From: Silvanigrellaceae bacterium
GTDB taxonomy: Bacteria; Bdellovibrionota_B; Oligoflexia; Silvanigrellales; Silvanigrellaceae
DNA length: 23,839 bases
Direction: 5' to 3'
NCBI GenBank assembly: GCA_049423385.1
Contig: JBMSQQ010000053.1
Coordinates: 1 to 23,839, forward strand
Under the pieces are notes generated by a model, which saw nothing but the letters and a program-made list of their open reading frames with translations, made no database searches and was not told the DNA's origin. Below are positions 8,515 through 22,784 of the stretch, piece after piece (within the stretch, counting starts at the first letter, position 1; each line of letters starts with the position of its first letter). The position numbers and the translations under genes are program-made.

Positions 8515-11500
8515 TCAATTTTCCTCGACAACTCCTTTCACCTCATTGTTGAGAGGAAGTTCATGTGCAAAATACGAAGGACGGGGCATGACTTCGATTG
8601 ATTTCCTGAAATCGTCCGGCCGGATTGTGGCCAATTTGTCCTTGAGAAGATGCGTGTATTGCGAAATGATTTCGGCATCGGACGCTTTGTCGAGTGCCTG
8701 CGAATAAAGTTTGGCAGCCTCTTCCTGAAGTGGGAGTGCAATCTTTTCGATTTTCGCTTTGAACGATTCGGTCTCCGCTGGCGAACTTCCTTGGGGCGCC
8801 GGAGCCTGCATGAGTATCAGAGCAAGTCCTTCCTGAATCTCGGCCACACGATACAATGCTCCGACCGCAGCCTCGACCTGTCCCGACTGTGAGAGTTGCA
8901 CATACTGTTGAGCCAGGCGCTGCGCATCGGTGCGGATGGAGCCGAATTCATTTTGAATTGCACTTCCGCTGCTGACGCGACGACTCAGCAGTTGACGGCT
9001 TTGTGCTTCGAGGAGTGAAAGTTGAACCTGGCCTGCCAATCTCAGTCCTTCAAACGCCCAAGCGCTCTGCAATTTTCCTGCAAAGAGCTTTCCGCGCGAC
9101 AGGGTCGCCGCCGCCATTTTTGCAGCCTCGCCTGCCTGACCCGCTGCGAGCCCAATCTGGGCAGCCTGGCCTGAAAAATAGAGTCCCCATTCCGGTGAGG
9201 TGTTCTGGCAGCGTTGATGGGCAGAATGGGCTGTCGCGAGAGTTGCCGTCGAGCGCATCATCATCTGTGCGTCCAGGACAAGCTTGAACATCTCGCAAAC
9301 ATCCGCCGGACGCTTCAGGTGTGGAATGGCTGCTTCTGCATTGGCGATGGCCTTGCCCGGATTGTTGTCGGCAAGCCGCAATTCGGCAGCGTGGGCGATC
9401 TCTTGTGCGAAGGTTTCCTTGTTGGTTCTGCGCGCTGCCAATTGCTCAAAGGCAGATGCCGCATCGCCGAGGCGTGCCATGGCTTCTGCGGTCATGGCCA
9501 TCATTTCAAGCGCCCGTGGCAAATATTCGGACGTCTGGTAGGTGGAAGAAAAGAGCCTCAGATTTGCGAGTGCCTCCTCGGGGCGATTGGCCTTGAATTG
9601 GTTGTTTGCGGCATTCACCAATGCTTTTCCCGCATCAGGATCGGTGGGGAAGTCTTTTTGATAGCTGACAAATTGCCGCGCAGCATCAAGGTGCATCCCG
9701 TTTTTCTCAGTCTGCAGGGCCTGCTGGAACAGAGCGACCCGCATCAGTTTGCTGATCTGCGCTCCTACGGGTGCGGCAGGAATTCCAGGGATGGAGAGAA
9801 AAGTCCTGGCATCGGCCGAAGCCTTTTGCCAATTTGAGGAATCGTACGATCGTTTGATGATGAGTCGCAGACCTTCGCTCACAAAAGGACTCTGTGGACT
9901 TTCCTTCGCCAATGACATCCATCGCTGGCTTGCCGGTGCCAGTTGACCAGATTGAAAATGTATCAGTGCAGCCCGATGGAGCAATGCAATGCGCTCGCTG
10001 TCTTTTGGAAACAGGGACGCGTGCAGATCAATGAGTTTGATCAGCCGGGCTTCGAGGGCTGGAATCGTTCCGTTGGCAATTCCAGCGGGAGTTCCTCTCC
10101 GTTGAATGAGGATGTCACTTTCAGCAATGGCATTTTCAAGCGCAATTTTCGTTTCAGGACGCTTGAGGCCAAGCTTTTTGTCGATCCAGGCTACCCGAGC
10201 GTAACCGTCAATTGCTTTCTCGTGTTCTTCCAGAGTGGTGTGCAGCTGTGATTTGTTGAATAGGGTTGAAAACATCTCCATCGACTCCGCTTGATGCCGA
10301 AGGGTGATTTCATACAGTGCCAACGCTTGGCGCGCCGTGGCCTTGTTTTTGCTCTTCTGGAATTCCGAATGGAATCTGAGGCTCCAGAGGTTTGCCTCAG
10401 ATGTGAGAAGCCTTTTGCTGTTTTCGCGTTCTTTCGCCGTTGGTTGAGACTTCCACCACTGCGATTCGGGTGAAGCCATGTCCGACAATTGCTGCAAACT
10501 TTCGACCATTTGTTCGCGCAGGTTGTCTTTCTCAAACAAAGCCGCCAGTCGGACCAGGAATTGTGGATTTTTTTCGCTTGCTGGAAACTCTTTCAGCAGT
10601 CTGGAATAGATTTCGATCGCTTCGCGATGTCGCCCTCCATCCGTGTGCAACCACGCAAGTCGTTCGAGCAGGGATGCATAGAGGCCGGTTTCGTTCATCG
10701 ACTTGAAATACTTCTGGGCTTCGTCGATGTCGCCCAATTCCGCGTAGACCAGCACCATGTCGCGCAAAGCATCCTTGCGAAGCATGGCCAGTTTTTTTCC
10801 TGATCCGCCTTCCTGGATGAATTTTTCCAACAGCTTGAATGCAGTCAGCGATTTTTGAAGGTTTTTTGCAGTCTCCTCATCACTTCCACGGATGTTGAAG
10901 AACGTCCATCCAAGCTTGTAGACGGCATAGGGATATGCCCGGTGAGTCCTGAAATTCAGAACTTTCTGGTAATACGTCTGTGCGTCGTTGAACTTGTTTC
11001 TGCTGAAATAGAACTCGCCGAGGGCAAGATTTGCATCGGGTATGAAATTCGATTTCGGAAAGCGATCAATCAGTCGCTGGAAATAAGGTGCAGCACTTTC
11101 GCTTTTCATTTCCGTCAGCAGAAAGCCGAGTTGGTAGAGTGCATCGGGTGTGCGGCTGTGATTGGGAAATTGATTGACCACATTGCGGAGGATCTGGGTC
11201 GCCGCATTCAACGATTGCATTGACTGGACCTGGGATATCTTTGGCTCGGGACCGCTTCGGTGATTGTTGAGCCATTTCGTGTGCGCTGCTTCGTATTGAT
11301 TCATTTCCCGAATGAGGAAATAGGTGTGCCTTTCGGAGTGCAATTCTGCCAACCGGAGAAGAAGATCAATCCGTTGGTTGGGCGATGAGGGCTGGCGGAG
11401 AATTTTTTCAATGCTTTGGATGGTCGCAAAGCGCAGGCTCTCGATTTCCTCTTCGCGCGTGGATTGCTTTCCAAGCTGATCATCCGATCGCCGCATGAAG

Positions 11501-11847
11501 CTGGCAAAGTCGAACAAGCCGGGTGCTTCGAAACGTCCTTCGGAGATAACCGAGGAAGTGCGCAGAGACCGAGTGAATTGCGAGGTTTGCTGTTTCAAGC
11601 TTTCTATTGCCGAGAGTCCACCGGTCTGGATTTGGGTGGTCCTGGATTGAAGCATCCGCGGTGCTGCAACCCCCTGCCAACTGTTCATCGCAGCAATGGG
11701 GTCCGTGTTCGATGCAATGGTTGCCTTGCTTTCCATTGCAGACTGGACCTTTGCGGGGTTCTGCTTTGCCTTGGCTTCATCCTCTAAAGTCGCCATCAGC
11801 AAAGCTGCCAATCCCAAGCAGGGAATCAATCTCTTATTTTTCTGCAT
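8515..11847 (-). CDS. gltD: Large exported TPR protein, GltD/AgmU-like (~1110 aa)
   Basis: Signal peptide MQKNKRLIPCLGLAALL at ATG 11847 (RBS GGAGAGG). Motifs LLLRLAELHSE, DALYQLGF, RLIDRFPKSNFIPDANLALGEFYF, YAVYKLGWTFFN, and C-terminal AALYRVAEI-like / IALPLQEEA. Confidence 0.75.
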   Translation of the reverse strand: MQKNKRLIPCLGLAALLMATLEDEAKAKQNPAKVQSAMESKATIASNTDPIAAMNSWQGVAAPRMLQSRTTQIQTGGLSAIESLKQQTSQFTRSLRTSSVISEGRFEAPGLFDFASFMRRSDDQLGKQSTREEEIESLRFATIQSIEKILRQPSSPNQRIDLLLRLAELHSERHTYFLIREMNQYEAAHTKWLNNHRSGPEPKISQVQSMQSLNAATQILRNVVNQFPNHSRTPDALYQLGFLLTEMKSESAAPYFQRLIDRFPKSNFIPDANLALGEFYFSRNKFNDAQTYYQKVLNFRTHRAYPYAVYKLGWTFFNIRGSDEETAKNLQKSLTAFKLLEKFIQEGGSGKKLAMLRKDALRDMVLVYAELGDIDEAQKYFKSMNETGLYASLLERLAWLHTDGGRHREAIEIYSRLLKEFPASEKNPQFLVRLAALFEKDNLREQMVESLQQLSDMASPESQWWKSQPTAKERENSKRLLTSEANLWSLRFHSEFQKSKNKATARQALALYEITLRHQAESMEMFSTLFNKSQLHTTLEEHEKAIDGYARVAWIDKKLGLKRPETKIALENAIAESDILIQRRGTPAGIANGTIPALEARLIKLIDLHASLFPKDSERIALLHRAALIHFQSGQLAPASQRWMSLAKESPQSPFVSEGLRLIIKRSYDSSNWQKASADARTFLSIPGIPAAPVGAQISKLMRVALFQQALQTEKNGMHLDAARQFVSYQKDFPTDPDAGKALVNAANNQFKANRPEEALANLRLFSSTYQTSEYLPRALEMMAMTAEAMARLGDAASAFEQLAARRTNKETFAQEIAHAAELRLADNNPGKAIANAEAAIPHLKRPADVCEMFKLVLDAQMMMRSTATLATAHSAHQRCQNTSPEWGLYFSGQAAQIGLAAGQAGEAAKMAAATLSRGKLFAGKLQSAWAFEGLRLAGQVQLSLLEAQSRQLLSRRVSSGSAIQNEFGSIRTDAQRLAQQYVQLSQSGQVEAAVGALYRVAEIQEGLALILMQAPAPQGSSPAETESFKAKIEKIALPLQEEAAKLYSQALDKASDAEIISQYTHLLKDKLATIRPDDFRKSIEVMPRPSYFAHELPLNNEVKGVVEEN

Positions 11848-13537
11848 GACGCGCCACCTCTCCTTCTGTTTTGTCGCAACTTGATGTCTTCTTGAAAACG
11901 AAACTGTCGAGTTCGTCTTGCCAAAACTCACGTTTGTCATTGTTCCAAAGATGCGGTTCCTGGCTGGCGGATTCGATGAACTCCTCCTCGGTTCCGGTGA
12001 ATTGCTGCCCGGAAGCCGAACGTCCATTGTTTGCCATCTTGTCTTTTTCAGCAGTCATGATTTCCAGATGAATCAACCGGAGTTGGGAAAAGGCACGATC
12101 GTAGTCGGAGCGCATGGAATCAATCACGGCCAGCACGTGCATTCCGATCTGGGACTGCTCCGATTCCTCCCGCTGAACCAGTGCATTCACGACCGTTTTC
12201 TTGATGCGCAGAGGCCAGTTTTCGGTATGGAATGCCAGCCTGTTTTCCCTGAGTTTTTGCAATGATTTCATTTTTCTGACGATCAGTGGCTTGTTGGCGA
12301 TCGTCTGCAAACTGCGCGGTCCGAGCGAGTTGTTTTTGGAACTCACACCAAGAAAAAGCGCCTCGGCAACTGAAAATGCCTTCTTCACCAAGGTCTTCTT
12401 TTCATCCGCAGTTGCATTTTCAGCGGTTCTCCATTTTCCCAGCAATGCCGAATCATTTTTTGTGTGCGCCACAAAACTGCGAATGTTTCTTCTTGCCGCC
12501 GGAAAGTCACACAGCCAGTAATTGACCGATGCACTCAGAAAATACTGATCGGGTTGAAACTGGTTGCTGAAAAATGGGCTTGTGGCACCGTATTCGGCAC
12601 CCAATGCACGATTGGGATGTCCGGCCATGAAGAAAGCCCATCCTTGTTCGCTCAGGCTCTCGTAGAACAGGGGGCTTTTGGAATCGATGGTGCGATAAAG
12701 CGCCAGTGCATCCTTGAATTCCTTGTTTTCAAACATGAGCCTGGCCAAGTTCAGTGCAGCAATTTCTTTCAGGTTGACCAGACTTTCACTCTCCATCCCG
12801 GAGCTCTTTTCTGCCTCAGTGGTTTCGAGTGACAGGACTGTTTCGAGTGAAATTTTTGCTTTTTGCAGTTGTCCGTTGGCCGCGTTCAAAAGTCCCTCGT
12901 TGAGGCGGGCGTGGCGGAACAAGGGCGACGACGGCTCGACTTTGGCCAGTTGAGCAAGAGCTTCCTCAGTCTTGCCTTTGCCTTTGGCAGCGATTCCCAA
13001 AAAGAAGTTCCAGTTTCCGTCTGTCAGCGTGTGTCCTGAACTTGCAAGTGCCGCGGCGACTTCTGCCAGCGCGGTGTAATTGGAACTGTCTGACACTCCA
13101 ATTTTGCCTTGAAAATCCTTCCAGATCAGAACGGTTGCATTTTTGTTGATTTTCAATGGCGCTGTTGTTGCAGCTTTTTTGATGAGTTCAACGGCCGCCA
13201 TGCGGCTGGACTCTTCGCTGCACAGGACAATAGACTGCGCGAGCATGATGCGCGATTGGTTTTCAAGGGTGTGGAACTGGGTTTCGAGATCTTTCTGCAG
13301 TTGCTCAACAAATGCAAGTTTTTTTGTCATTGAGTTGCTTTTTTGTTGCCACGCACGGTCGAGAAGCTGCAATTCCTTTGGGGTTTTTTTTGCGTTGTTC
13401 GGGGCTTGCTTTTTTGAAACTTGTGCAGCCTTTGTCGAATCGACGTTGTCGGCATTTGCCGGTTTTGGCATACCTGCCGACAGAATCAGCATCGCCAATG
13501 ATCCGCCCAGCCGTTTCGGAAAAGATGATCTGTTCAT
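11834..13537 (-). CDS. gltC: Exported TPR protein, GltC-like
   Basis: Signal peptide ending ANA. AALNLARLMFE, SPLFYESLSEQGWAFF, RALG...SPFF, YWLCDF and C-terminal W...EFWQDELDSF...C follow the GltC pattern. ATG 13537 lies just after the upstream stop. Confidence 0.75.
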   Translation of the reverse strand: MNRSSFPKRLGGSLAMLILSAGMPKPANADNVDSTKAAQVSKKQAPNNAKKTPKELQLLDRAWQQKSNSMTKKLAFVEQLQKDLETQFHTLENQSRIMLAQSIVLCSEESSRMAAVELIKKAATTAPLKINKNATVLIWKDFQGKIGVSDSSNYTALAEVAAALASSGHTLTDGNWNFFLGIAAKGKGKTEEALAQLAKVEPSSPLFRHARLNEGLLNAANGQLQKAKISLETVLSLETTEAEKSSGMESESLVNLKEIAALNLARLMFENKEFKDALALYRTIDSKSPLFYESLSEQGWAFFMAGHPNRALGAEYGATSPFFSNQFQPDQYFLSASVNYWLCDFPAARRNIRSFVAHTKNDSALLGKWRTAENATADEKKTLVKKAFSVAEALFLGVSSKNNSLGPRSLQTIANKPLIVRKMKSLQKLRENRLAFHTENWPLRIKKTVVNALVQREESEQSQIGMHVLAVIDSMRSDYDRAFSQLRLIHLEIMTAEKDKMANNGRSASGQQFTGTEEEFIESASQEPHLWNNDKREFWQDELDSFVFKKTSSCDKTEGEVARHAEK

Positions 13538-13541
13538 GACA

Positions 13542-14240
13542 TCAATCTCCGGAATTGAGAAAAGCACTGAGTCCAAACTGGGCAACCCAGTTGTGACGCC
13601 AGCTGCTCAAGGACGTTTCACCATTGCTCACGGTTTGTTTCAGGAAAACATCCGTTGCGTCGATCCGCAGACTGAATGAACGCGAGAAATAGAAGCGTTG
13701 GCCAATTCCTGGTGTCAGCGCCCACTTTTGACCCTGGGTTGTCTCGACGCGGGCTGCACCTGCGCTGAGCGTGAGGTCGGAATAAAGGATCAGCCAATCA
13801 AAAAGATTGATTTTCCCATAGATAGGCGCCGTCACCAGCTGAAGTTGATGTGATTTCGAGAGTCGAATGTAGCTCGGCTCAATCGAACGGCATTCGAGAG
13901 CCACACAGACTTCCTGTTTGCGAAGCGCAAGCAAATCAGGTGAATCCGCTGCCTTGAACTTGGCATAGTTGTATTCAACACCGATTTTTTCGCTCAGAAA
14001 AAGACCCACCCTTCCACCAAATGAACTGGTGTTCGAGTAGCTCTCATTCAAAATGGTTCCGGCGCTGACTCCGGTTTCAAGGCGGAGCTGCTTGGTGAAG
14101 AAACGGTTTTGCAGAACCGTCGGGGCTGTGTCGTTGCCCGTGTCCGTTGCCAACGCAAGCAGGCGTCCGTCGGATTTTGGGCCAGCAATGCCCACAGCTG
14201 AAACACTCGCCCAGGCGAGTGCAAGATGTGTCTTCCACAT
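13542..14240 (-). CDS. Outer-membrane beta-barrel protein, GltA/GltB-like myxobacterial/Bdellovibrio family
   Basis: Signal peptide; VLQNRFFTKQLRLE, APIYGKINLF and GIGQRFYFSRSFSLRID; alternating beta strands ending QFGLSAFL; adjacent to gltC. Confidence 0.75.
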   Translation of the reverse strand: MWKTHLALAWASVSAVGIAGPKSDGRLLALATDTGNDTAPTVLQNRFFTKQLRLETGVSAGTILNESYSNTSSFGGRVGLFLSEKIGVEYNYAKFKAADSPDLLALRKQEVCVALECRSIEPSYIRLSKSHQLQLVTAPIYGKINLFDWLILYSDLTLSAGAARVETTQGQKWALTPGIGQRFYFSRSFSLRIDATDVFLKQTVSNGETSLSSWRHNWVAQFGLSAFLNSGD

Positions 14241-14270
14241 GGTCGAATCCTCTAAGTTGACCTGTGGGTA

Positions 14271-14297
14271 TCATCGACGGCAAATTGACGAACTTGA
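14271..14297 (-). promoter_or_regulatory. Putative sigma28 (FliA)-like promoter of the glt cluster
   Basis: Minus strand TCAAG-N14-GTCGATGA, 30 nt before ATG 14240 (RBS GAGGA). Confidence 0.55.
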
Positions 14298-14327
14298 GCT
14301 TTTTGGGAAAAAATTTCCTGGAGGGTC

Positions 14328-15872
14328 TTATTTTGCGAGTGCTGCCGCGCCTATAACAGCCTTGAGGTCGTCATCCGAAAAGCGCAGACCAGCTCCAAAA
14401 AACGAGACGGGCTTTGGTGAGCGGCCAATGTTGTCGGCTCCACCGGTGATATAAACATTGGGCGTCACGAACAGGCTTGCATATCCCTTGACCCGCGCAA
14501 AACCCTTGGAACGATAGTCGGCCTGGCTGAGGTCGTCGCCAAATTGGAAGACTTCAACCGAAGTGCTGAGACGATCGGAAAACAAGTAGAGATCCCCGGC
14601 AACCCCGGCATAACTTTCAAACAGCCCGAAGCGCACACCCAGGTGGTCGAAGCGCTTGGCAAATTGCACATTGTACTTGATTCTTGGCCGTTCCTCGGAT
14701 GTGGTCGTCTCGACCCGGGTGATGTCGGCGTTCGTCGAATCCTTTGTGACAGTTGTTCTTTCCTCGGTGATTTTTCGGCTCTGTGGAGAATCCGAAACTC
14801 CAAGCAAATAGTACCTGTCGGGTCGGGTTGCCAATCTCAAGTTGAAGTGGTTGCCTGCGTTGCCCACATAGCGGGTGTCGTCGCTGCGGAGCTCGCCCTT
14901 GTAGTCGACCTCGATGCGCAACTTGGCCGCTGGCTTGAGAATTTCCTGAACGCTTTTGAGCGTTGTCTTGAGCTCATTGGCTGCGTCATCCTTGGACACC
15001 AATTGGCCCAGGGTGCCCTCGCCTTTTTCAACCTTGTCGACAATCAATTGGACCTTGCTGGTGGCCTGTCGCACGCTCTGCATGGAGTCATCGAGTGCTG
15101 CAACGATGTTTTCGATCCGGTTTTTGTTCTCGCCGGACATCACCTTGCGCAGTTCTGCACTGAAGACTTTCATGTCCTTGCTGGCATCGGCCACAGCGAG
15201 CATGATTTCGTCGATTCTTCCGTCGTGCTTTGCCAACAGGCCATTCACACGTGTGATGGACTCACGCAATGTGTCGAGCGTCGCCGCGATGTTTGCCTTT
15301 TGTCCGGAGACGATGTCACGCGCTTCAGCGGTGATTTTTTCCACGTTTGAAACAATGCTCTGCAACGTGGATTGTCCGTCTCCCCCACCAAACACCTTGG
15401 CCAGTGTACGACTCACGGTCTGGAGATCCTGGGCAATGCTGCCCAACGAACTCATCAGCGTCCCCATGTCGTTGAACTCTTTCATCTGGGGAATCTGCGA
15501 ACCGGTTTCCAGCTCTTCCTTGCTGTCCTCGTTGCGCACGATTTCGAGATAGACATCTCCAAGAATACCGCGCGATCTAAGCTCAATATAGGAACCTTTT
15601 GGAATCTTCACCGAGCCGTTCACCCGGAAGTTCACCTTTGCGCCCTTTGGAAGAATGTCGATCGACTCAACTTCTCCAACCTGCACACCACTCGTGCGCA
15701 CCTGCGTGCGAGCACCCACACCACCAACATTCTGCAGTACTGTGTTGAATCTGAGCGGGCGAGCGGTAAACGGATTTCCTTCGAGTGTGACAATGATTCC
15801 ACCCAATGCTCCAAGTGCGCACAGGGTGAAAAGCCCGACCTTCAATTCGGTGGTCACGGTTCTTTCGAACAT
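14328..15872 (-). CDS. mlaD: Long MlaD/MCE protein: N-terminal TM, one MCE domain, long helical region, C-terminal beta-rich domain
   Basis: ELKVGLF plus TM helix; VGGVGARTQVRTSGVQVGEV and RGILGDVYLEI; heptad-like helical middle; GEGTLGQLV; amphipathic beta strands to FFGAGLRF. Confidence 0.9.
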   Translation of the reverse strand: MFERTVTTELKVGLFTLCALGALGGIIVTLEGNPFTARPLRFNTVLQNVGGVGARTQVRTSGVQVGEVESIDILPKGAKVNFRVNGSVKIPKGSYIELRSRGILGDVYLEIVRNEDSKEELETGSQIPQMKEFNDMGTLMSSLGSIAQDLQTVSRTLAKVFGGGDGQSTLQSIVSNVEKITAEARDIVSGQKANIAATLDTLRESITRVNGLLAKHDGRIDEIMLAVADASKDMKVFSAELRKVMSGENKNRIENIVAALDDSMQSVRQATSKVQLIVDKVEKGEGTLGQLVSKDDAANELKTTLKSVQEILKPAAKLRIEVDYKGELRSDDTRYVGNAGNHFNLRLATRPDRYYLLGVSDSPQSRKITEERTTVTKDSTNADITRVETTTSEERPRIKYNVQFAKRFDHLGVRFGLFESYAGVAGDLYLFSDRLSTSVEVFQFGDDLSQADYRSKGFARVKGYASLFVTPNVYITGGADNIGRSPKPVSFFGAGLRFSDDDLKAVIGAAALAK

Positions 15873-15921
15873 TCACAACTCTCATTGCCCGAAGGCAAGC
15901 AAAAACGTTCACTTCAGTCTA

Positions 15922-15948
15922 TCATCGGAATCGAAATTAACATCTTGA
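15922..15948 (-). promoter_or_regulatory. Putative internal sigma28 (FliA)-like promoter upstream of mlaD
   Basis: Minus strand TCAAG-N14-TCCGATGA in the 125-bp mlaF-mlaD gap; it overlaps a possible extended -10 (TGA-TAGACT). Confidence 0.55.
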
Positions 15949-15997
15949 GATTGGATGGGTAACATTTTCAGCCCGTCGGAGTCGCGGCATCGATGCA

Positions 15998-16822
15998 TCA
16001 GGCAATGGGTTGTCCCAACGGGCCGGTCAAGGAGCCGGTGAGAAATTGTTGAATGACAGGATCTTTGCTTTGAAGAAAGTCTTGTGGAGTTCCGGACATG
16101 TACATTTTTCCTTCGTGAAGGAAAAAAATCCTGTCGGCGATGCGCAGCACCGACTGGATGTCATGACTGATGACGACGCTCGATAGGCCTGGAATCTTTT
16201 TTTGCATTTCAACAATAAGGTTATCAATCAGCTCGGAAACCAAGGGATCCATCCCGGTGGTCGGCTCATCGTAAAGCAACAAAGATGGATTCAGGGCAAG
16301 AGCCCGCGCGAGCCCGACCCGTTTTCGTTCGCCGATGGAAAGATCCGGAACCTGGGCCATACCATAACCTGGGAGCCCGACGGTCTCGAGCAACATGTTC
16401 ACCTTGTCGGCGAGTTGCCGCGGCGAAAGCTTTTCGAACTCCCGAATCGGGAAGGCGACGTTTTCGCCAACGCTCATGCTGTCGAACAACGCGCCGTCCT
16501 GGAAAAGTAGTCCCATTTTTCTGCGCGCCTCAATCCAATCGGTTTCGGGTGCATGGGTCAACACTTTTCCATTGATTGAAATTTCACCTTCATCTGGATG
16601 AAGCACGCCAATGATGTGCTTGATGGTGACAGATTTACCTTCTCCCGATCGTCCAATGATGAAACTGATTTCGCCTTGTTGAAGTTCAAAACTCAATCCG
16701 CGCAGAACCTGCTGATGACCAAATGATTTGCGGACGTTTGAAAAACGCACAATGGTCTTGTTTTTTGCGGAGGATAGATTGAGCGACGCTGGAGACTCGC
16801 TTCTGGGACTTTGCGAAGTCAT
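15998..16822 (-). CDS. mlaF: MlaF/Mkl-family ABC ATPase
   Basis: Walker A GRSGEGKS, LFQDGALFDSMSVGENVAFP, signature LSIGE, Walker B LLLYDEPTTGMDP, ISHD, and DPVIQQFL. Confidence 0.93.
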   Translation of the reverse strand: MTSQSPRSESPASLNLSSAKNKTIVRFSNVRKSFGHQQVLRGLSFELQQGEISFIIGRSGEGKSVTIKHIIGVLHPDEGEISINGKVLTHAPETDWIEARRKMGLLFQDGALFDSMSVGENVAFPIREFEKLSPRQLADKVNMLLETVGLPGYGMAQVPDLSIGERKRVGLARALALNPSLLLYDEPTTGMDPLVSELIDNLIVEMQKKIPGLSSVVISHDIQSVLRIADRIFFLHEGKMYMSGTPQDFLQSKDPVIQQFLTGSLTGPLGQPIA

Positions 16823-16825
16823 TCG

Positions 16826-17614
16826 CTATCCCCTCATCTGGGCGAGGGAAATGAAAAAATCGACAATCAAAATAGTGAGAAGGCTCGCCACCACCGCTTG
16901 GGTCGTTGCCTCGCCAACTCCCTTTGCTCCGCCGCGGGCATAGAACCCCTTGTAACAGGCAATCGTGGAAATAATGAATCCAAACACCAGCGCCTTCACC
17001 ATTCCTTTACGAATGTCCGAAACCCAGACCAGCCATTTGAGCTGAGCAACAAAAACGGAGGTGTCGACCCGGAACATGATCATCCCGAGCACAAAGCAGC
17101 CAACCAGGCCAAGCGCAAGAAAAATCACAGAAAGCAAAGGCATCATGATTGTGCTGGCAATCACGCGCGGAACGATAAGGTAACTGACGGGTGAGACGCC
17201 CATGGCTTCCATGGCATCAAGCTGTTCATTGACCCGCATCGTTGCGATTTCTGCAGCCATGGCCGCGCCGGCGCGGCCAGTCACAATAAAACCGCACATC
17301 ACGGGGGCCAATTCGAGCGCAAGCGCCTTGCCCGTGGCTGCGCCCATCAAACCTTCGGCACGGAAAATTCCAAAAATCGTGCCAATCTGAAGACCCAGAA
17401 CCGCACCTGTGAAAAGTGAGGAGAGGGTCACGATAGACAGCGATTTGTTGCCGACGAATTCGAATTGGCGAAAGATCAATTGGAGTCTGAGTGGTGGGCG
17501 AAAAAGCCAGAAAAAAACTTCGTGCATCAGGAGGGTGAAACGGCCAAGACCAATGACTTGCCTGCGTACCAAACCTCCCAAGGTTTCCAGACTGCGCAGG
17601 GCAATTTCAATCAT
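16826..17614 (-). CDS. mlaE: MlaE-family ABC permease
   Basis: VGNKSLSIV, ELAPV, GRAGAAMAAEIATMRVNEQLDAMEAMGVSP, and GGAKGVGEATTQAVV. ATG 17614 (alternative TTG 17620). Confidence 0.95.
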   Translation of the reverse strand: MIEIALRSLETLGGLVRRQVIGLGRFTLLMHEVFFWLFRPPLRLQLIFRQFEFVGNKSLSIVTLSSLFTGAVLGLQIGTIFGIFRAEGLMGAATGKALALELAPVMCGFIVTGRAGAAMAAEIATMRVNEQLDAMEAMGVSPVSYLIVPRVIASTIMMPLLSVIFLALGLVGCFVLGMIMFRVDTSVFVAQLKWLVWVSDIRKGMVKALVFGFIISTIACYKGFYARGGAKGVGEATTQAVVASLLTILIVDFFISLAQMRG

Positions 17615-17616
17615 GG

Positions 17617-18744
17617 TCAACTTTCTCCCGATTTCTCCGCGATTTTTTGGCCCAGCGATGCGAGATCCTCAAGACGCAGCGAAGACTGCGCGTCCAAATG
17701 CTGCGCAACCGGCAAGGTCACCACTGATTCAGCGGTGCGGCCCAGCTGTTCCTGTACGCGTCTCTGAACTATAATAAAATTCTCAAGATAATTTGCAAAA
17801 AACGAGGCATCTTGTTGACGCAGGTGATTGAGAGTCTCGTGGAATCCCGCGTCCTGCCGAAGTTCCTCCGGGAAGGCTCTGTTGATCACAACCTTGGCCG
17901 ATTTCATTTTCAAGGCTTTAAGTGTCCGGCTTAGTTCGGTTGCGACCTGAACGGCGTCATAGCGAACGGAAGTTACAACGTAACAGTGAGTTTCACTCGA
18001 CTTCAGCCAGTTCTTTGCAAAATCAAGACGGGTCATCATTCTTGCAAAAACAGCGTCGAGCAAGATTAAAAATTCGGCGAAGTGAAGCATGAAACGTTGT
18101 CCGCCGAGTTCCGACAATCCCTCAAGAATCCGCCTCGCGCCGCCCTTCACGACCCGCTGGATCAAGCCGCCCTGCGGTTGGTTTTCCTGAGCGAACCACT
18201 TGAGCCATTCGATGAGTTTGCCATCCAGAAACGCACTCAATTTTTCGGGCTTCGATAAAAAGTCGATCGCGTGGATTCCGGGCGCAGTATCGACAACAAG
18301 ATCAGTGAGCCCCTCTTCACGCTCCGGCCATTCTGCCATGCGAACAGCGGCGAACGTGTCTGTTGCAGTCGCAAGTCTTTCAGCAACAGCGCGAAAGAGT
18401 GTGTTTGCATACAATTTTTCTTGTGCGGCTTCGGAAAGACCAGCCTCCGAAACCCAACGCTTGAGGCTGTCGCCAATGTGCAAAACACTGGCACGCAGAG
18501 ACCCGTTGCCATGATGGAGTTCGATACGCGCGCCCGTTTCCGGCAGTTCTGACAGTCCCAATGCGCCCTGCAGGCGTTTGGCGGGGTCGATCGACATGAG
18601 TCCAACATGTTTGCCTTGCTGCGCGAGCGCCAGGGCGAAACCAGCGGAAAGCGTGGTTTTACCCACTCCACCCGCACCCAAAAACAGGTGCAGACGAGGC
18701 AGCTTTCGTTCTTCGCTCTTTGCTCGAGCTGATTCTTTTTTCAC
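17617..18744 (-). CDS. ArsA/Get3-family ATPase, subunit 2 (BagB/Rv3680-like pattern)
   Basis: LGAGGVGKTT, SIDPAKRL, LVVDTAPG and VVINR. The GTG start overlaps the upstream stop (GTGA). Confidence 0.85.
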   Translation of the reverse strand: MKKESARAKSEERKLPRLHLFLGAGGVGKTTLSAGFALALAQQGKHVGLMSIDPAKRLQGALGLSELPETGARIELHHGNGSLRASVLHIGDSLKRWVSEAGLSEAAQEKLYANTLFRAVAERLATATDTFAAVRMAEWPEREEGLTDLVVDTAPGIHAIDFLSKPEKLSAFLDGKLIEWLKWFAQENQPQGGLIQRVVKGGARRILEGLSELGGQRFMLHFAEFLILLDAVFARMMTRLDFAKNWLKSSETHCYVVTSVRYDAVQVATELSRTLKALKMKSAKVVINRAFPEELRQDAGFHETLNHLRQQDASFFANYLENFIIVQRRVQEQLGRTAESVVTLPVAQHLDAQSSLRLEDLASLGQKIAEKSGES

Positions 18745-19802
18745 CGCTGATCCTCGCTGATTTCTGCTGCCAGCACATCGGCAGTGGACGCGTGATGAGT
18801 CCTCGGATCCGAATCACCGGGATTTTGATTGGTGTTGCCGAGCCATTGGGTCACACCTTCAAGCACTGCCGATGCCGCTGCATCGGGATTGGCAAGACCA
18901 ATGTCCGGCACTGGAATGAGTGGAACTTCAGCTGCAATTTTTGCAGTCGATTGACGAAGGACATCTTCAAAATGAACTCGTTTGCACAAATCCCTGTGGA
19001 GCAATCCAAGCGCATTCACCGCCTGCTCGGATGAAAGATTGTCTTTCCAGATTCCGAGAACGTGACGCTCATCCAACGATGCGTGATTCTTTTCCATGAA
19101 TGGCGAAAGCGATCTGTTGATGAACAACGCCGCCGGCGATCTGCCCAAATCCTTTGTCAGACGTGGCAAAAATTCGAGTGTTTCTTCAACAGGAAGTTCT
19201 TCCGGAAGAGTGACGAGGGCGGTTCCCACCAGCTTGGGGTCGGCGAGCATCTTTGCAACTCTCTCGCATTCACTCGCCAAGGGCCCCGTCATGCCAAACT
19301 GTGCAATCGTCGGTGCAACAGTAAAAAGTGAAACTCCATGCCCGGTCGCTTGGGTATCGACAATCACCCTGTCGAATCGGGTTCCGCGAATTTCTTCCGA
19401 CAAACACACGAGCCAGAACAATCGCCCGAGAAAAAAGAGCTCCTGGACTCCCGGCGCAGCATGAATCAGCCGCTGAACGTGGCGGTTTTCAATCACCAGG
19501 TTGTAGAGCAGCTTCAATTTGAGATGGTCGATGAAATATTCTCGAATGGCCTCGTCGGGAGAGAAATTCATCGTCCAAAGATTGGGAGCGATGGGTTCCG
19601 AATCGTGACCCGCTGCGGGTTTGGAAAAAAGAAGAGAGACAGAGTCATGAAGTGCCCATTGGACAATCAGCGTCTTCTCTCCGTTGAGAGCGCACAACTG
19701 TGCGAAGGAAGTGGCTAGCGTTGTGCGACCAACCCCGCCCTTCCCGAGAAAAAACACCAATCTCTGCGGAATACGCTGGGTGAGATTGGTCGGTGAATTC
19801 AT
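18741..19802 (-). CDS. ArsA/Get3-family ATPase, subunit 1 (BagA/Rv3679-like pattern, degenerate P-loop)
   Basis: LGKGGVGRTT, AAPGVQELFFLG, VIVDTQATGH, VTLPEELPVEET and FINR. ATG overlaps the tatA stop (ATGA). Confidence 0.85.
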   Translation of the reverse strand: MNSPTNLTQRIPQRLVFFLGKGGVGRTTLATSFAQLCALNGEKTLIVQWALHDSVSLLFSKPAAGHDSEPIAPNLWTMNFSPDEAIREYFIDHLKLKLLYNLVIENRHVQRLIHAAPGVQELFFLGRLFWLVCLSEEIRGTRFDRVIVDTQATGHGVSLFTVAPTIAQFGMTGPLASECERVAKMLADPKLVGTALVTLPEELPVEETLEFLPRLTKDLGRSPAALFINRSLSPFMEKNHASLDERHVLGIWKDNLSSEQAVNALGLLHRDLCKRVHFEDVLRQSTAKIAAEVPLIPVPDIGLANPDAAASAVLEGVTQWLGNTNQNPGDSDPRTHHASTADVLAAEISEDQR

Positions 19803-20104
19803 TTGCTCGAATCGCGATGTTCGACGTCGACAAAGTCAACTTTGGGCTGATTGCTGCCCTGAGGACCTTGAAGGCTGCCCGGCTGAACGCTCTGTGCGGC
19901 GATAGTCTGCTGAGTTGATTGCATATTTTGCTGTGGAGGTTGCGACTGGGCCTGATTTTTGTCGCCAGAGTCGTCGTTCAGACCCTTTTTGAAGTTGCGA
20001 ATCCCCTCACCCAGGGACTTGCCGACCGTTGGCAACCGGTTGCCAAAGAGAAGCAATGCAATTCCAAGAATAACCAATAGTTCGATTGGACCAAGATTTG
20101 GCAT
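19799..20104 (-). CDS. tatA: Twin-arginine translocase TatA/E subunit
   Basis: MPNLGPIELLVILGIALLLFGNRLPTVGKSLGEGIRNFKKGL with a Q-rich tail. GGAGGG lies 5 nt before ATG 20104. Confidence 0.93.
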   Translation of the reverse strand: MPNLGPIELLVILGIALLLFGNRLPTVGKSLGEGIRNFKKGLNDDSGDKNQAQSQPPQQNMQSTQQTIAAQSVQPGSLQGPQGSNQPKVDFVDVEHRDSSK

Positions 20105-20198
20105 GACCGCCCTCCATACCCCAAAAAGCACGTCCGAAGACTTCTGGGTGTTCATCGGATTATTCCTGCCATTGGATGAGGTCAACAGTCGGGAAACA

Positions 20199-20212
20199 TT
20201 GACGCTCGTCAA
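20199..20212. promoter_or_regulatory. Palindrome TTGAC-N4-GTCAA (FNR/CRP-family-like box) in the divergent tatA/mqnE region
   Basis: TTGACGCTCGTCAA has perfect 6-bp arms and the same geometry as the FNR consensus TTGAT-N4-ATCAA. Confidence 0.4.
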
Positions 20213-20277
20213 GGGCATTTGATGCTCAGCGAAACGATGCTATCAGTCTTAAAGTCAAATTCATAGAAAGGGTTCCC

Positions 20278-21465
20278 ATGGAATCGCTGACTTGCGCTTC
20301 ATCCCATGTCCCCACACATCGGCTGACGGGGCCATCCGAGTTGCCTTCGGTTAAGGTAACCTATCACGCTGTTCAGTCCGCTTTGAGCAAAGCACTCCGC
20401 GGTGAGCGACTCACCTACGAGGATGGAGTCAATCTCTATCACTCTCCAGATCTGGTTGAACTGGGTGCAGTCGCCAACGAAATGAACATGCGCCGGAATG
20501 GACGCGATGTTTACTTCAACGTCAATCGCCATATCAATCCGACCAACATCTGCGCGTTGTCGTGCAAGTTTTGCGCATTTTCGCGCAAGCCTGGCGACGA
20601 AGGTGCATATGCCTATTCAGAAGACGAGATTGCCCATCGTGCGCGCATGGCAGCTGATTCCGGTGCAACCGAAATTCACATGGTGGGTGGTCTTCATCCG
20701 CGTTGGAAATTGTCGAACTACACAAACATCATCCGTACAGTGAAAGCTGCGGCCCCCCAGGTGCACGTCAAGGCGTTCACGGCCGTCGAGCTCGACTGGC
20801 TTGCGCGCAAGGAGCGCAAACCCGTTGCCGATGTAATAGCAGAACTGCGCGATGCCGGACTCGGTAGCTTTCCCGGGGGCGGAGCTGAAATTTTTGTTCC
20901 CTACGTGCGCGAAAAAATCTGCGACACAAAACTGACCGGCGAAGGCTGGCTTGATATCCACAGAACCGCACACAAGATGGGACTGCGTTCAAACTGCACG
21001 ATGCTCTATGGTCACATCGAAGATGTTTCCGCCCGCGTTGACCACATGCTACGTCTGCGTGCCCTGCAGGACGAGACGAATGGCTTCAATGTGTTTATTC
21101 CGCTGGCGTATCAACCCGAAAACAACGACCTGGGAATCAATCGACACACCTATGGTGTTGATGACCTCAAAACCATTGCGGTGGCTCGCCTGTTGATGGA
21201 CAACTTCCGCAACATCAAGAGCTATTGGATCATGACCGGCGACAGAGTCGCACAGACTGCGCTGCATTACGGCGCCAACGACCTCGATGGCACAGTTGTT
21301 GAAGAGAAAATTGCAAACATGGCCGGAAGTCAAAGCGGAATGGCCATGGCGAAGAGCAAGTTGTTGAGGGTGATCCGCGATGCCGGCCGTATTCCGGTGG
21401 AGCGCTCAACCGTCTATGAATCCATCCGTCGCTTCGACAATCCAGCCGAGGACCAACTCGCATGA
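20278..21465 (+). CDS. mqnE: Aminofutalosine synthase (radical SAM)
   Basis: FNVNRHINPTNICALSCKFCAF, EIHMVGGLHP, HVKAFTAVE, PGGGAEIF, TMLYGHIE, FIPLAY, IKSYWIM and GANDLDGTVVEEKI. Confidence 0.92.
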   Translation: MESLTCASSHVPTHRLTGPSELPSVKVTYHAVQSALSKALRGERLTYEDGVNLYHSPDLVELGAVANEMNMRRNGRDVYFNVNRHINPTNICALSCKFCAFSRKPGDEGAYAYSEDEIAHRARMAADSGATEIHMVGGLHPRWKLSNYTNIIRTVKAAAPQVHVKAFTAVELDWLARKERKPVADVIAELRDAGLGSFPGGGAEIFVPYVREKICDTKLTGEGWLDIHRTAHKMGLRSNCTMLYGHIEDVSARVDHMLRLRALQDETNGFNVFIPLAYQPENNDLGINRHTYGVDDLKTIAVARLLMDNFRNIKSYWIMTGDRVAQTALHYGANDLDGTVVEEKIANMAGSQSGMAMAKSKLLRVIRDAGRIPVERSTVYESIRRFDNPAEDQLA

Positions 21466-22784
21466 ATCCATATTCAATCAACTGTGCTGTGAAGCCTGTT
21501 TGGCGTGAGTTTGAAAAACCCCTGAAGCAAGACAGCCTTCCTGCCGGAGCTGGTTTTCAGGAAGCGCCAACACTGGAAGAAATCAACGCCCGTGATGCTC
21601 AGCGCCAGCAGCTGATCAACGCAGGTTCACGTGCAAGCCGTGTGCACGATGAACTGATGATGAGCCAAATCCAGGCCACAGTGGATCCCCTGCTCAAGTC
21701 TGCTTACGAAACAGCGCTTTCAGGAACACGACTGTCGGGTGAACAAGGTCAAGCTCTGCTCGACAACGGTGACTTGAATCTTCTGGGATGGCTTGCCACC
21801 CGCGCAAAAGAGCGCTTCCATCCCGGCGGAAAGGTTTCCTTCCTTCTCGACCGCAATATCAACTACACAAACATCTGCCGCATTGGCTGCGACTTCTGTG
21901 CGTTTTATCGCCGCGGCCCCGAGTCCGATGCCTACGTTCTTCCAAAGGAAGACATTTTCAAGAAAATCGAAGAAACCATCGAATTGGGTGGCACTGGCAC
22001 ATTGATGCAAGGCGGAGTGAACCCGCACCTGAAGATTGAGTATTATGAAGATCTCTTCCGGAGCATCAAGGAGCGCTACAAGATCCACTTGCATGCACTT
22101 TCGGTGATTGAAATCGAAGGCATTGCACAAGTTTCGCGCCTGACGGTTGAGGAAACGCTTGAACGCTTGAAGGCGGCCGGTTTGGATTCCATCCCAGGAG
22201 CCGGTGCCGAGATTCTTTCAGATGAAATCCGTCTCGAGCAGAGCCCTGTGAAACGTCATAGCCATCGGTGGATCAAGGTGATGCAGGAAGCCCACAAGGC
22301 GAACTTGCCAACCACGGCCACGATGATGTTTGGCGCACTGGAAGAGCGCAAGCATGTCATTGAACACATCCTGCGCATCCGCGATGCACAGGACGAAACC
22401 CAGGGCTTCTATGCGTTCATTTTGTGGACGTTCCAGGGCGAAAACACGGAACTGGCAAAGAAGAATCCGGATATGCAGCCGACCAGTGGTGTTGAATACC
22501 TGAGGGTTCTGGCTGTGAGCCGCTTGATGATGGACAACATTCCAAACATCCAGGGCAGCTGGGTCACAATGGGGCCAAAGATTGGACAAATCTCTCTCCA
22601 CTACGGCGCCAACGACATGGGCTCGATCATGATCGAAGAAAATGTCGTCAGTGCTGCGGGAACGTCCTATACGCTCGATCGCAAGAACATGATTGAACTC
22701 ATCCGTCGCTCCGGATTCACTCCGGTGCAACGCGACACGTACTACAACATTCTTGCCGAGTACCCCGAGTCCCCCGCCGAGTGA
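21462..22784 (+). CDS. mqnC: Cyclic dehypoxanthinyl futalosine synthase (radical SAM)
   Basis: DRNINYTNICRIGCDFCAFYR, LMQGGVNP, SIPGAGAEIL, TTATMMFG, QGSWVTMG, GANDMGSIMIEENVVSAAG and QRDTYY. ATGA overlap with mqnE. Confidence 0.93.
   Translation: MNPYSINCAVKPVWREFEKPLKQDSLPAGAGFQEAPTLEEINARDAQRQQLINAGSRASRVHDELMMSQIQATVDPLLKSAYETALSGTRLSGEQGQALLDNGDLNLLGWLATRAKERFHPGGKVSFLLDRNINYTNICRIGCDFCAFYRRGPESDAYVLPKEDIFKKIEETIELGGTGTLMQGGVNPHLKIEYYEDLFRSIKERYKIHLHALSVIEIEGIAQVSRLTVEETLERLKAAGLDSIPGAGAEILSDEIRLEQSPVKRHSHRWIKVMQEAHKANLPTTATMMFGALEERKHVIEHILRIRDAQDETQGFYAFILWTFQGENTELAKKNPDMQPTSGVEYLRVLAVSRLMMDNIPNIQGSWVTMGPKIGQISLHYGANDMGSIMIEENVVSAAGTSYTLDRKNMIELIRRSGFTPVQRDTYYNILAEYPESPAE

Follow-up and report, generated by a model that had tools for sequence, protein, structure and literature searches.

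Introduction

To our knowledge, Get3 homologues are widespread in bacteria, the structure of the BagAB pair has been solved, and the clients of these proteins are not known; nor do we know of any partners of the Get1/2 or Get4/5 kind in bacteria. BagA and BagB (Rv3679 and Rv3680 of Mycobacterium tuberculosis; PDB 6bs3-6bs5) are encoded by two adjacent single-domain Get3-fold genes, A followed by B. A second described system of relevance here, the three-gene MlaEFD of Veillonella parvula, lacks MlaA and MlaC according to the main text of PMC10665443, and its elongated MlaD terminates in a barrel of the outer membrane, whose location was examined by cell fractionation. The same text infers MlaD proteins of this elongated, barrel-ended kind in 103 sequences, regards them as ancestral, and raises the question of whether accessory proteins control such bridges (PMC10665443). 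Here we describe a locus in which a pair of the first kind adjoins a system of the second. In DNA of a Silvanigrellaceae bacterium (GCA_049423385.1, contig JBMSQQ010000053.1, positions 1-23,839; this whole stretch of 23,839 nucleotides (nt) is hereafter the window), the six genes tatA, ATPase1, ATPase2, mlaE, mlaF, and mlaD follow one another at 14328..20104, so that a BagAB-type pair stands between tatA and mlaEFD. We found that these six genes constitute a single row, conserved throughout a small phylum, and this row is a testable clue to the job of the ATPases, short of proof of joint action.

The resemblance of the window's ATPases to BagA and BagB goes beyond the arrangement of the genes, since these are their best matches in sequence and fold, the subunits fall on the same sides of a tree, and the B subunit has the P-loop GAGGVGKT, as in 6bs3_B. 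They differ in being only ~26-33% identical to the mycobacterial proteins and in the A subunit, which here has GKGGVGRT and a Q for an E; moreover, none of the surveyed actinobacterial loci places the pair between tatA and mlaEFD, unlike the window. Get3/TRC40 has the fold and the principle of a deviant P-loop ATPase dimer in common with the pair, but it is a homodimer, of which a zinc-binding CXXC is a feature, whereas a heterodimer of two unequal genes is predicted here; no CXXC motif occurs in the translations of ATPase1 or ATPase2, and both fall under the cut-off of TIGR00345, the Get3/ArsA subfamily model (74.5 and 71.4 bits, respectively, vs. 135). ArsA of the ArsA-ArsB pump belongs to the same superfamily, and there too an ATPase gene stands beside genes for membrane proteins; however, ArsA is a fused two-domain protein of ~580 amino acids (aa), whereas the proteins of the pair are single-domain and have no ars genes nearby. 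MlaE, MlaF, and the MCE domain are common to the window and to the Escherichia coli MlaFEDB-MlaC-MlaA system, from which the window differs in being without MlaA, MlaB, and MlaC and in having an MlaD of 514 aa with helical and barrel parts, as opposed to the short, ring-only protein of E. coli. The V. parvula system is closer, as it likewise consists of three genes and its MlaD likewise comprises an anchor, an MCE domain, a helical part, a barrel and, in some, an end helix, but the main text of PMC10665443 mentions no ArsA/Get3-like or tatA neighbors.

The gene row and its conservation

The six genes are all encoded on the minus strand and were assigned from a list of open reading frames (ORFs) together with Pfam and NCBIfam matches. 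The first, tatA (19799-20104; 101 aa; Pfam TatA_B_E, E 1.9e-13), starts with an ATG at 20104 that has GGAGG 6 nt upstream. It is followed by ATPase1, a BagA-type subunit of the Get3/ArsA fold (18741-19802; 353 aa; ArsA_ATPase, E 2.2e-21; P-loop GKGGVGRT), and by ATPase2, the BagB-type subunit of the same fold (17617-18744; 375 aa from a GTG start; ArsA_ATPase, E 3.5e-18; P-loop GAGGVGKT). The Mla genes come next, namely the mlaE permease (16826-17614 if read from an ATG, or to 17620 if from a TTG; Pfam MlaE, E 9.7e-72), an mlaF-like ABC ATPase (15998-16822; 274 aa; ABC_tran, E 1.8e-30), and a long mlaD, an MCE gene (14328-15872; 514 aa; Pfam MlaD, E 4.2e-15). Gene order and junctions are as claimed in an earlier reading of this DNA made from the letters alone (hereafter, the original prediction): tatA and ATPase1 share an ATGA, ATPase1 and ATPase2 overlap by 4 nt (GTGA), the ATG of mlaE lies 2 nt past the ATPase2 stop (the alternative TTG at 17620 would give a 4-nt overlap), and mlaE and mlaF are 3 nt apart. 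The spacer between mlaF and mlaD measures 125 nt. All junctions were read off the sequence. Among 20 fetched regions from 11 families, with start codons assigned by a rule, the median gaps in gene order were 2.5, -4, 38, 3, and 124 nt, and the ATPase2-mlaE junction was -4 to 2 nt in 7 of the 8 regions from the host's family. Since short or overlapping junctions recur across families, the tight spacing seen in the window is not a local accident. A promoter and terminator scan of 11500-20600 returned 4 and 12 sites, vs. 4.0 and 12.8 expected, numbers too close to chance to be informative.

The original prediction had named confinement to one genome or genus as a refuting outcome; a neighborhood survey carried the linkage beyond both. 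The census set consisted of 131 species-level genomes from 19 families of the phylum, which holds a single class. A BagB-like gene was present in 113 of them; one of these, a 54-residue fragment at a contig end, was set aside, as were four weak secondary BagB matches, and 112 genomes were scored. Scoring was done on DNA fetched around each match, by tblastn searches with the proteins of the window and by a TatA profile built from an alignment (tblastn with TatA misses distant TatA genes), and the fuller locus was taken if a genome had two pairs. The A subunit was found directly upstream of the BagB-like gene in 109 genomes and was missing there in 1 (2 cut by a contig end), and mlaE, or mlaF plus mlaD, lay directly downstream in 95 and not in 8 (9 cut). 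A TatA-family gene preceded the A subunit in 77 genomes and did not in 31 (4 cut), and a long mlaD was present downstream in 85, in a further 2 with an insertion, and not in 6 (19 cut). The full six-gene row was observed in 65/91 judgeable genomes, representing 10 of the 15 pair-bearing families, although these genomes are kin and the counts overstate their independence. When the 99 genomes judgeable for both tatA and mlaE were considered, 68 had both, 23 had only mlaE, 5 had only tatA, and 3 had neither.

The flanks served as a control. On one side, mqnE adjoins tatA only within the host's family; on the other, the genes past mlaD vary from family to family and are often convergent on mlaD. 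BagB-like proteins are ~30% identical between families. Therefore, with the flanks lost and the block kept across proteins this divergent, the gene row has been retained where its surroundings have not.

Identity of the ATPase pair

The original prediction considered the two ATPases to be a BagAB-type, Get3-like pair unrelated to arsenic, and family models, solved structures, fold comparison, and phylogeny agree. The best NCBIfam match of ATPase1 was BagA (NF053622; 83.5 bits, under the equivalog cut-off of 400) and that of ATPase2 was BagB (NF053621; 142.1 bits, under the equivalog cut-off of 521). Likewise, their best solved relatives by sequence were 6bs3_A (Rv3679; E 3.8e-17) and 6bs3_B (Rv3680; E 2.2e-28), respectively. 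An AlphaFold model of ATPase2, with a predicted local distance difference test score (pLDDT) of 79.8, found 6bs3_B as its best match in Foldseek (E 5.9e-16 over 368 columns), with archaeal, yeast, and human Get3 next and ArsA lower.

A scan for relatives, limited to one genome per species, returned 544 relatives in 599 candidate stretches, of which the best 80, mostly from Actinomycetota, were kept. An A-type gene stood directly upstream of the B-type gene on the same strand in 92/98 loci; the remaining 6 comprised 4 cut by the end of the stretch and 2 without an A-type match. We then built a quick maximum-likelihood tree with IQ-TREE on half of the 88 available pairs (44: that of the window, 17 from the phylum, 11 from other non-actinobacterial sources, and 15 from actinobacteria; filters removed four loci). 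One branch, with a Shimodaira-Hasegawa-like approximate likelihood-ratio test (SH-aLRT) value of 100, parts all A from all B subunits, and ATPase1 groups with the actinobacterial A subunits and ATPase2 with the B subunits. This clean split indicates that the duplication giving rise to A and B is old and that the window's pair is BagAB-type. Because the scores are well under the equivalog cut-offs, the pair was filed at a greater distance: judged by sequence comparison, ATPase1 and ATPase2 are distant orthologues of BagA and BagB and not equivalogs of the mycobacterial proteins.

Two side observations concern the wider family. On contig L033 (8956-11125), from a metagenome-assembled genome titled 'Leptospiraceae bacterium', an A-B pair nests within the host's family in both halves of the tree; its B subunit is 46% identical to ATPase2, neither tatA nor mla adjoins it, and its neighbors are valyl-tRNA synthetase, CARDB, and BatD-like genes. 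Either a transfer or a mis-binned contig is possible. In addition, ArsA-like open frames of ~600 aa occur in several genomes of the phylum.

The two subunits differ in their nucleotide-binding motifs. The B subunit has the P-loop G[SAPC]GGVGKT in 87/87 pairs, and the window's GAGGVGKT is of this kind, with the first lysine missing. Among the A subunits, 78/87 have GKGG.GK[ST], 8/87 have R for the second K, and 1/87 gave no match; both patterns were defined by our own survey and not by the literature. The window's A subunit, with GKGGVGRT, departs from the surveyed A pattern, and the R is present in 10/11 rows of the host's family. The Arg P-loop of A is thus a family-level variant and is no argument against homology. 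In the alignment, the A subunit of the host's family also has Q where 8/9 rows of other families have E, and its N-terminal part (19660-19750) reads V-Q-W in the host's family vs. V-E in other families. ATPase2 has the P-loop lysine and an I-D-P-A motif. From what is known of P-loop ATPases in general, the R and Q changes in A would be expected to cripple hydrolysis, which suggests that the A subunit of the host's family binds ATP but hardly hydrolyzes it.

The Mla genes

The mlaE product exceeded the cut-off of TIGR00056 (224.9 vs. 212.2 bits), and the best NCBIfam match of mlaF was MlaF (PRK11831; 182.4 bits, under the equivalog cut-off of 441). In the host genome, the window's mlaE is the only MlaE found and its mlaD the only MCE gene found; in fact, the linked mlaE is usually the sole copy in genomes of the host's family. 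The model of MlaD (mean pLDDT 63) contains a membrane helix at residues 8-30, confident MCE strands at 40-112, helices at 137-312 (~180 residues, pLDDT <50), and a 12-strand beta domain at 319-499, in blocks mostly of pLDDT 76-89, followed by an end helix. The top Foldseek matches of this model were mycobacterial Mce1 subunits and MlaD. In an all-against-representatives structural alignment, the MCE domain matched E. coli MlaD (5uw8_A) with a Z of 15.8, and the C-terminal domain matched membrane barrels, namely a designed barrel (Z 13.2), a Legionella porin (12.9), and OpcA (12.7), as well as soluble nitrobindin-like barrels (Z 10-11). The Mla part is therefore best described, as far as such models can indicate, as the minimal MlaEFD with a long MlaD, a predicted envelope-spanning lipid transporter.

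No match to ars genes, TatC, or MlaA, MlaB, or MlaC was found among the window's 22 larger ORFs, in line with the original prediction, and MlaA (PF04333) and MlaC (PF05494) were not found in the host genome (90.6% complete), just as they are missing from that of V. parvula. The absence of mlaA, mlaB, and mlaC is, however, no sign of a new system, and this part of the prediction does not stand: a minimal MlaEFD with a barrel-ended MlaD is already described in the main text of PMC10665443 and is widespread, so the missing mlaA, mlaB, and mlaC are ordinary. The parts of the gene row, i.e., TatA, BagAB, and the minimal MlaEFD with its long MlaD, are all known already, and the novelty, as far as our searches show, lies in their combination, for which we found no description in the literature, covered mostly outside subscription journals.

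TatA

The tatA product scored 57.8 bits with TIGR01411 (cut-off 53.9) and has an N-terminal membrane helix, an amphipathic helix, and a tail rich in Q and P. It is the only strong TatA in the host genome, a weak TatB-like gene being located on another contig and TatC being encoded on a third. As the only strong TatA of its genome, the tatA of the row is a housekeeping gene rather than a specialized paralogue. A complex prediction of ATPase1, ATPase2, and TatA, in which TatA was scored as the partner on custom alignments and with no controls, gave a score of 0.00 vs. a mark of 0.32, which is evidence neither for binding nor against it.

Function of the pair

We favor, with a probability of roughly 0.45, the reading that the pair is an accessory, ATP-driven cytosolic factor for the chaperoning, targeting, or assembly of inner-membrane components co-expressed with it. 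By analogy to Get3, the A-B dimer would close on ATP around a hydrophobic segment, and so might chaperone, target, or help to assemble inner-membrane proteins encoded on the same transcript; the candidate clients are TatA and the membrane segments of MlaE and MlaD. In such a dimer, ATP hydrolysis would fall to B, while A would probably be, in the host's family, a regulatory partner that hydrolyzes poorly. The pair would be accessory in that it may help machines able to run without it. According to passages of PMC10597346 and PMC12216072, tolerance to citrate, streptomycin, and rifampicin changes when transposons hit mycobacterial bagAB, and earlier studies of glycerol and nitric-oxide toxicity are cited there; these phenotypes are compatible with a membrane or envelope role without being decisive. 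A more sweeping version, in which BagAB-type ATPases at large serve bacteria to target or assemble small or awkward inner-membrane proteins after translation, their clients here being TatA and the part of the trans-envelope Mla bridge that is based in the inner membrane, is conceivable yet rather doubtful.

The value of the gene row is that, phylum-wide, it names specific candidate clients (TatA, together with the membrane segments of MlaE and MlaD) in lineages some of whose relatives have assemblies of 1-3 contigs. For the trans-envelope Mla bridge, recently put forward as ancestral, the pair becomes a possible accessory factor. Should the targeting reading be true, the operon would be the first clue from genomes to the clients long sought for the Get3 homologues of bacteria; should the coupling be purely regulatory, the row would still serve as a clean synteny marker for the phylum.

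Several observations weigh against a strict partnership of the pair with its neighbors, beginning with the kinship of the surveyed genomes noted above. A BagB-like gene was not found in 18/131 genomes, or in 7/83 when only high-quality genomes are counted, and in 5 of these 18 a distance of 65-809 nt separates a TatA match from the MlaE match that follows it. Two of the five were confirmed on fetched DNA to have the order tatA-mlaE-mlaF-mlaD. Since tatA-mlaEFD is intact in lineages without the pair, TatA and MlaEFD do not need it. Conversely, the pair lacks mla in 8 genomes and tatA in 31, and a second A-B pair, adjoined by neither tatA nor mla, occurs in four genomes of one genus. Unrelated genes stand between mlaF and mlaD in two genomes of the window's own genus, which implies that mlaD need not share the transcript. 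Outside the lineage, mlaE was located beside the pair in only 3/80 other-species loci, and those three belong to the lineage's gene row. The neighbors in the remaining 77 loci are gyrB/gyrA, trigger factor and GshA, sigma-54 regulators, or nothing recurrent; the TatA profile found no TatA-family frame in the stretches around these 77 loci, and none of them showed linkage to mla or mce. Finally, TatA is anchored at its N-terminus and is not a classical tail-anchored client of Get3. The original prediction had proposed a pair that serves MlaEFD, with TatA as its partner or client. The linkage on which that proposal was built has held up, while a dedicated role has been weakened by the housekeeping nature of tatA, by the pair-less tatA-mlaEFD rows, by the other neighbors outside the phylum, and by the insertions between mlaF and mlaD.

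Several of these exceptional loci have features of their own. In L124 (9060-9790), a family member with a 1.8-Mb genome that has lost the pair, ~690 nt with an internal repeat separate tatA from mlaE; this stretch was considered as a possible remnant gene and rejected, as it contains neither a long open frame nor an ATPase match. The genomes with a second pair (L182, L184, L185, and L186) are of one genus of another family. The mlaF-mlaD insertions (L145:5747-7854 and L146:5744-9543) place 2-3.8 kb within the spacer; both include an astacin-like peptidase gene, accompanied in one by a dockerin-domain ORF and in the other by a MASE1 histidine kinase encoded on the opposite strand.

The alternative that survives best is that the genes are neighbors only, an inherited housekeeping envelope operon under shared regulation, as in mixed ribosomal-protein operons, with the general job of the pair unrelated to the genes around it. 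We regard this as quite possible, if short of an even chance. It agrees with the varied contexts of the pair outside the phylum, with its loss from rows in which tatA-mlaEFD remains intact, with the siting of second copies elsewhere, and with the lack of MlaE or TatA near the actinobacterial pairs. What it accounts for less readily is the retention of the block, with both flanks lost, over families that share only ~30% identity in their BagB-like proteins, and junctions that overlap or are very short.

A different explanation is that the pair docks on TatA, much as ArsA does on ArsB or Get3 on Get1/2, with the acidic tail of TatA as the docking site, and so regulates or energizes assembly of the Tat pore. 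Here tatA lies directly before the pair in 77/108 genomes, at a median gap of 2.5 nt, and 5 genomes have tatA and the pair without mla. Moreover, the otherwise low-complexity tail of TatA (19799-19850) ends in V-[VI]-D-[VA]-[ED]-H in 11/11 rows of the host's family, in every genus sampled, and this V-D-V-E-H motif looks like a short docking motif, to go by its sequence. However, the motif is absent in the 2 rows from other families, 31 genomes have no tatA in the row, and no TatA-family frame stands beside the 77 pairs outside the lineage in the stretches examined. No Tat system studied to date is known to need an ATPase, and we consider docking unlikely. As a further observation on this tail, that of the pair-less L124 reads V-I-D-V-E-Q.

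The pair could also be a cytoplasmic lipid carrier or chaperone that feeds or empties the MlaFE transporter, as one form of the original prediction had it. The fold of ATPase2 matches that of Get3, in which there is a hydrophobic groove, and mlaE directly follows the pair in 95/103 judgeable genomes. On the other hand, we know of no Get3/ArsA-family protein that binds lipid, MlaEFD works without the pair in the lineages that lost it, and the pair is unlinked to mla or mce in the 77 loci outside the lineage. The question of accessory proteins for such bridges, as posed in the main text of PMC10665443, leaves room for a carrier of this kind, which we nevertheless hold to be very improbable.

An arsenite pump with its ArsA-type ATPase split into two genes can be dismissed, for although Pfam ArsA_ATPase matches both proteins, they are single-domain, score 46 (ATPase1) and 52 bits (ATPase2) with TIGR04291 (ArsA; cut-off 650), group with BagA and BagB in the tree, and have no ars genes among the 22 ORFs scanned in the window.

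Flanking genes

Divergent from tatA, at 20278-22784, are mqnE and mqnC, of the futalosine route to menaquinone, and then a class I/II aminotransferase. The proteins encoded after mlaD (8515-14240) were considered as members of the system and rejected, because their place after mlaD is kept only within the genus and, in part, the family. They include a 232-aa beta-barrel protein that matches TIGR04565 (OMP_myx_plus; 80.1 bits), a GltC-like TPR protein of 583 aa, and a 1170-aa TPR protein with BamD/YbgF-like repeats.

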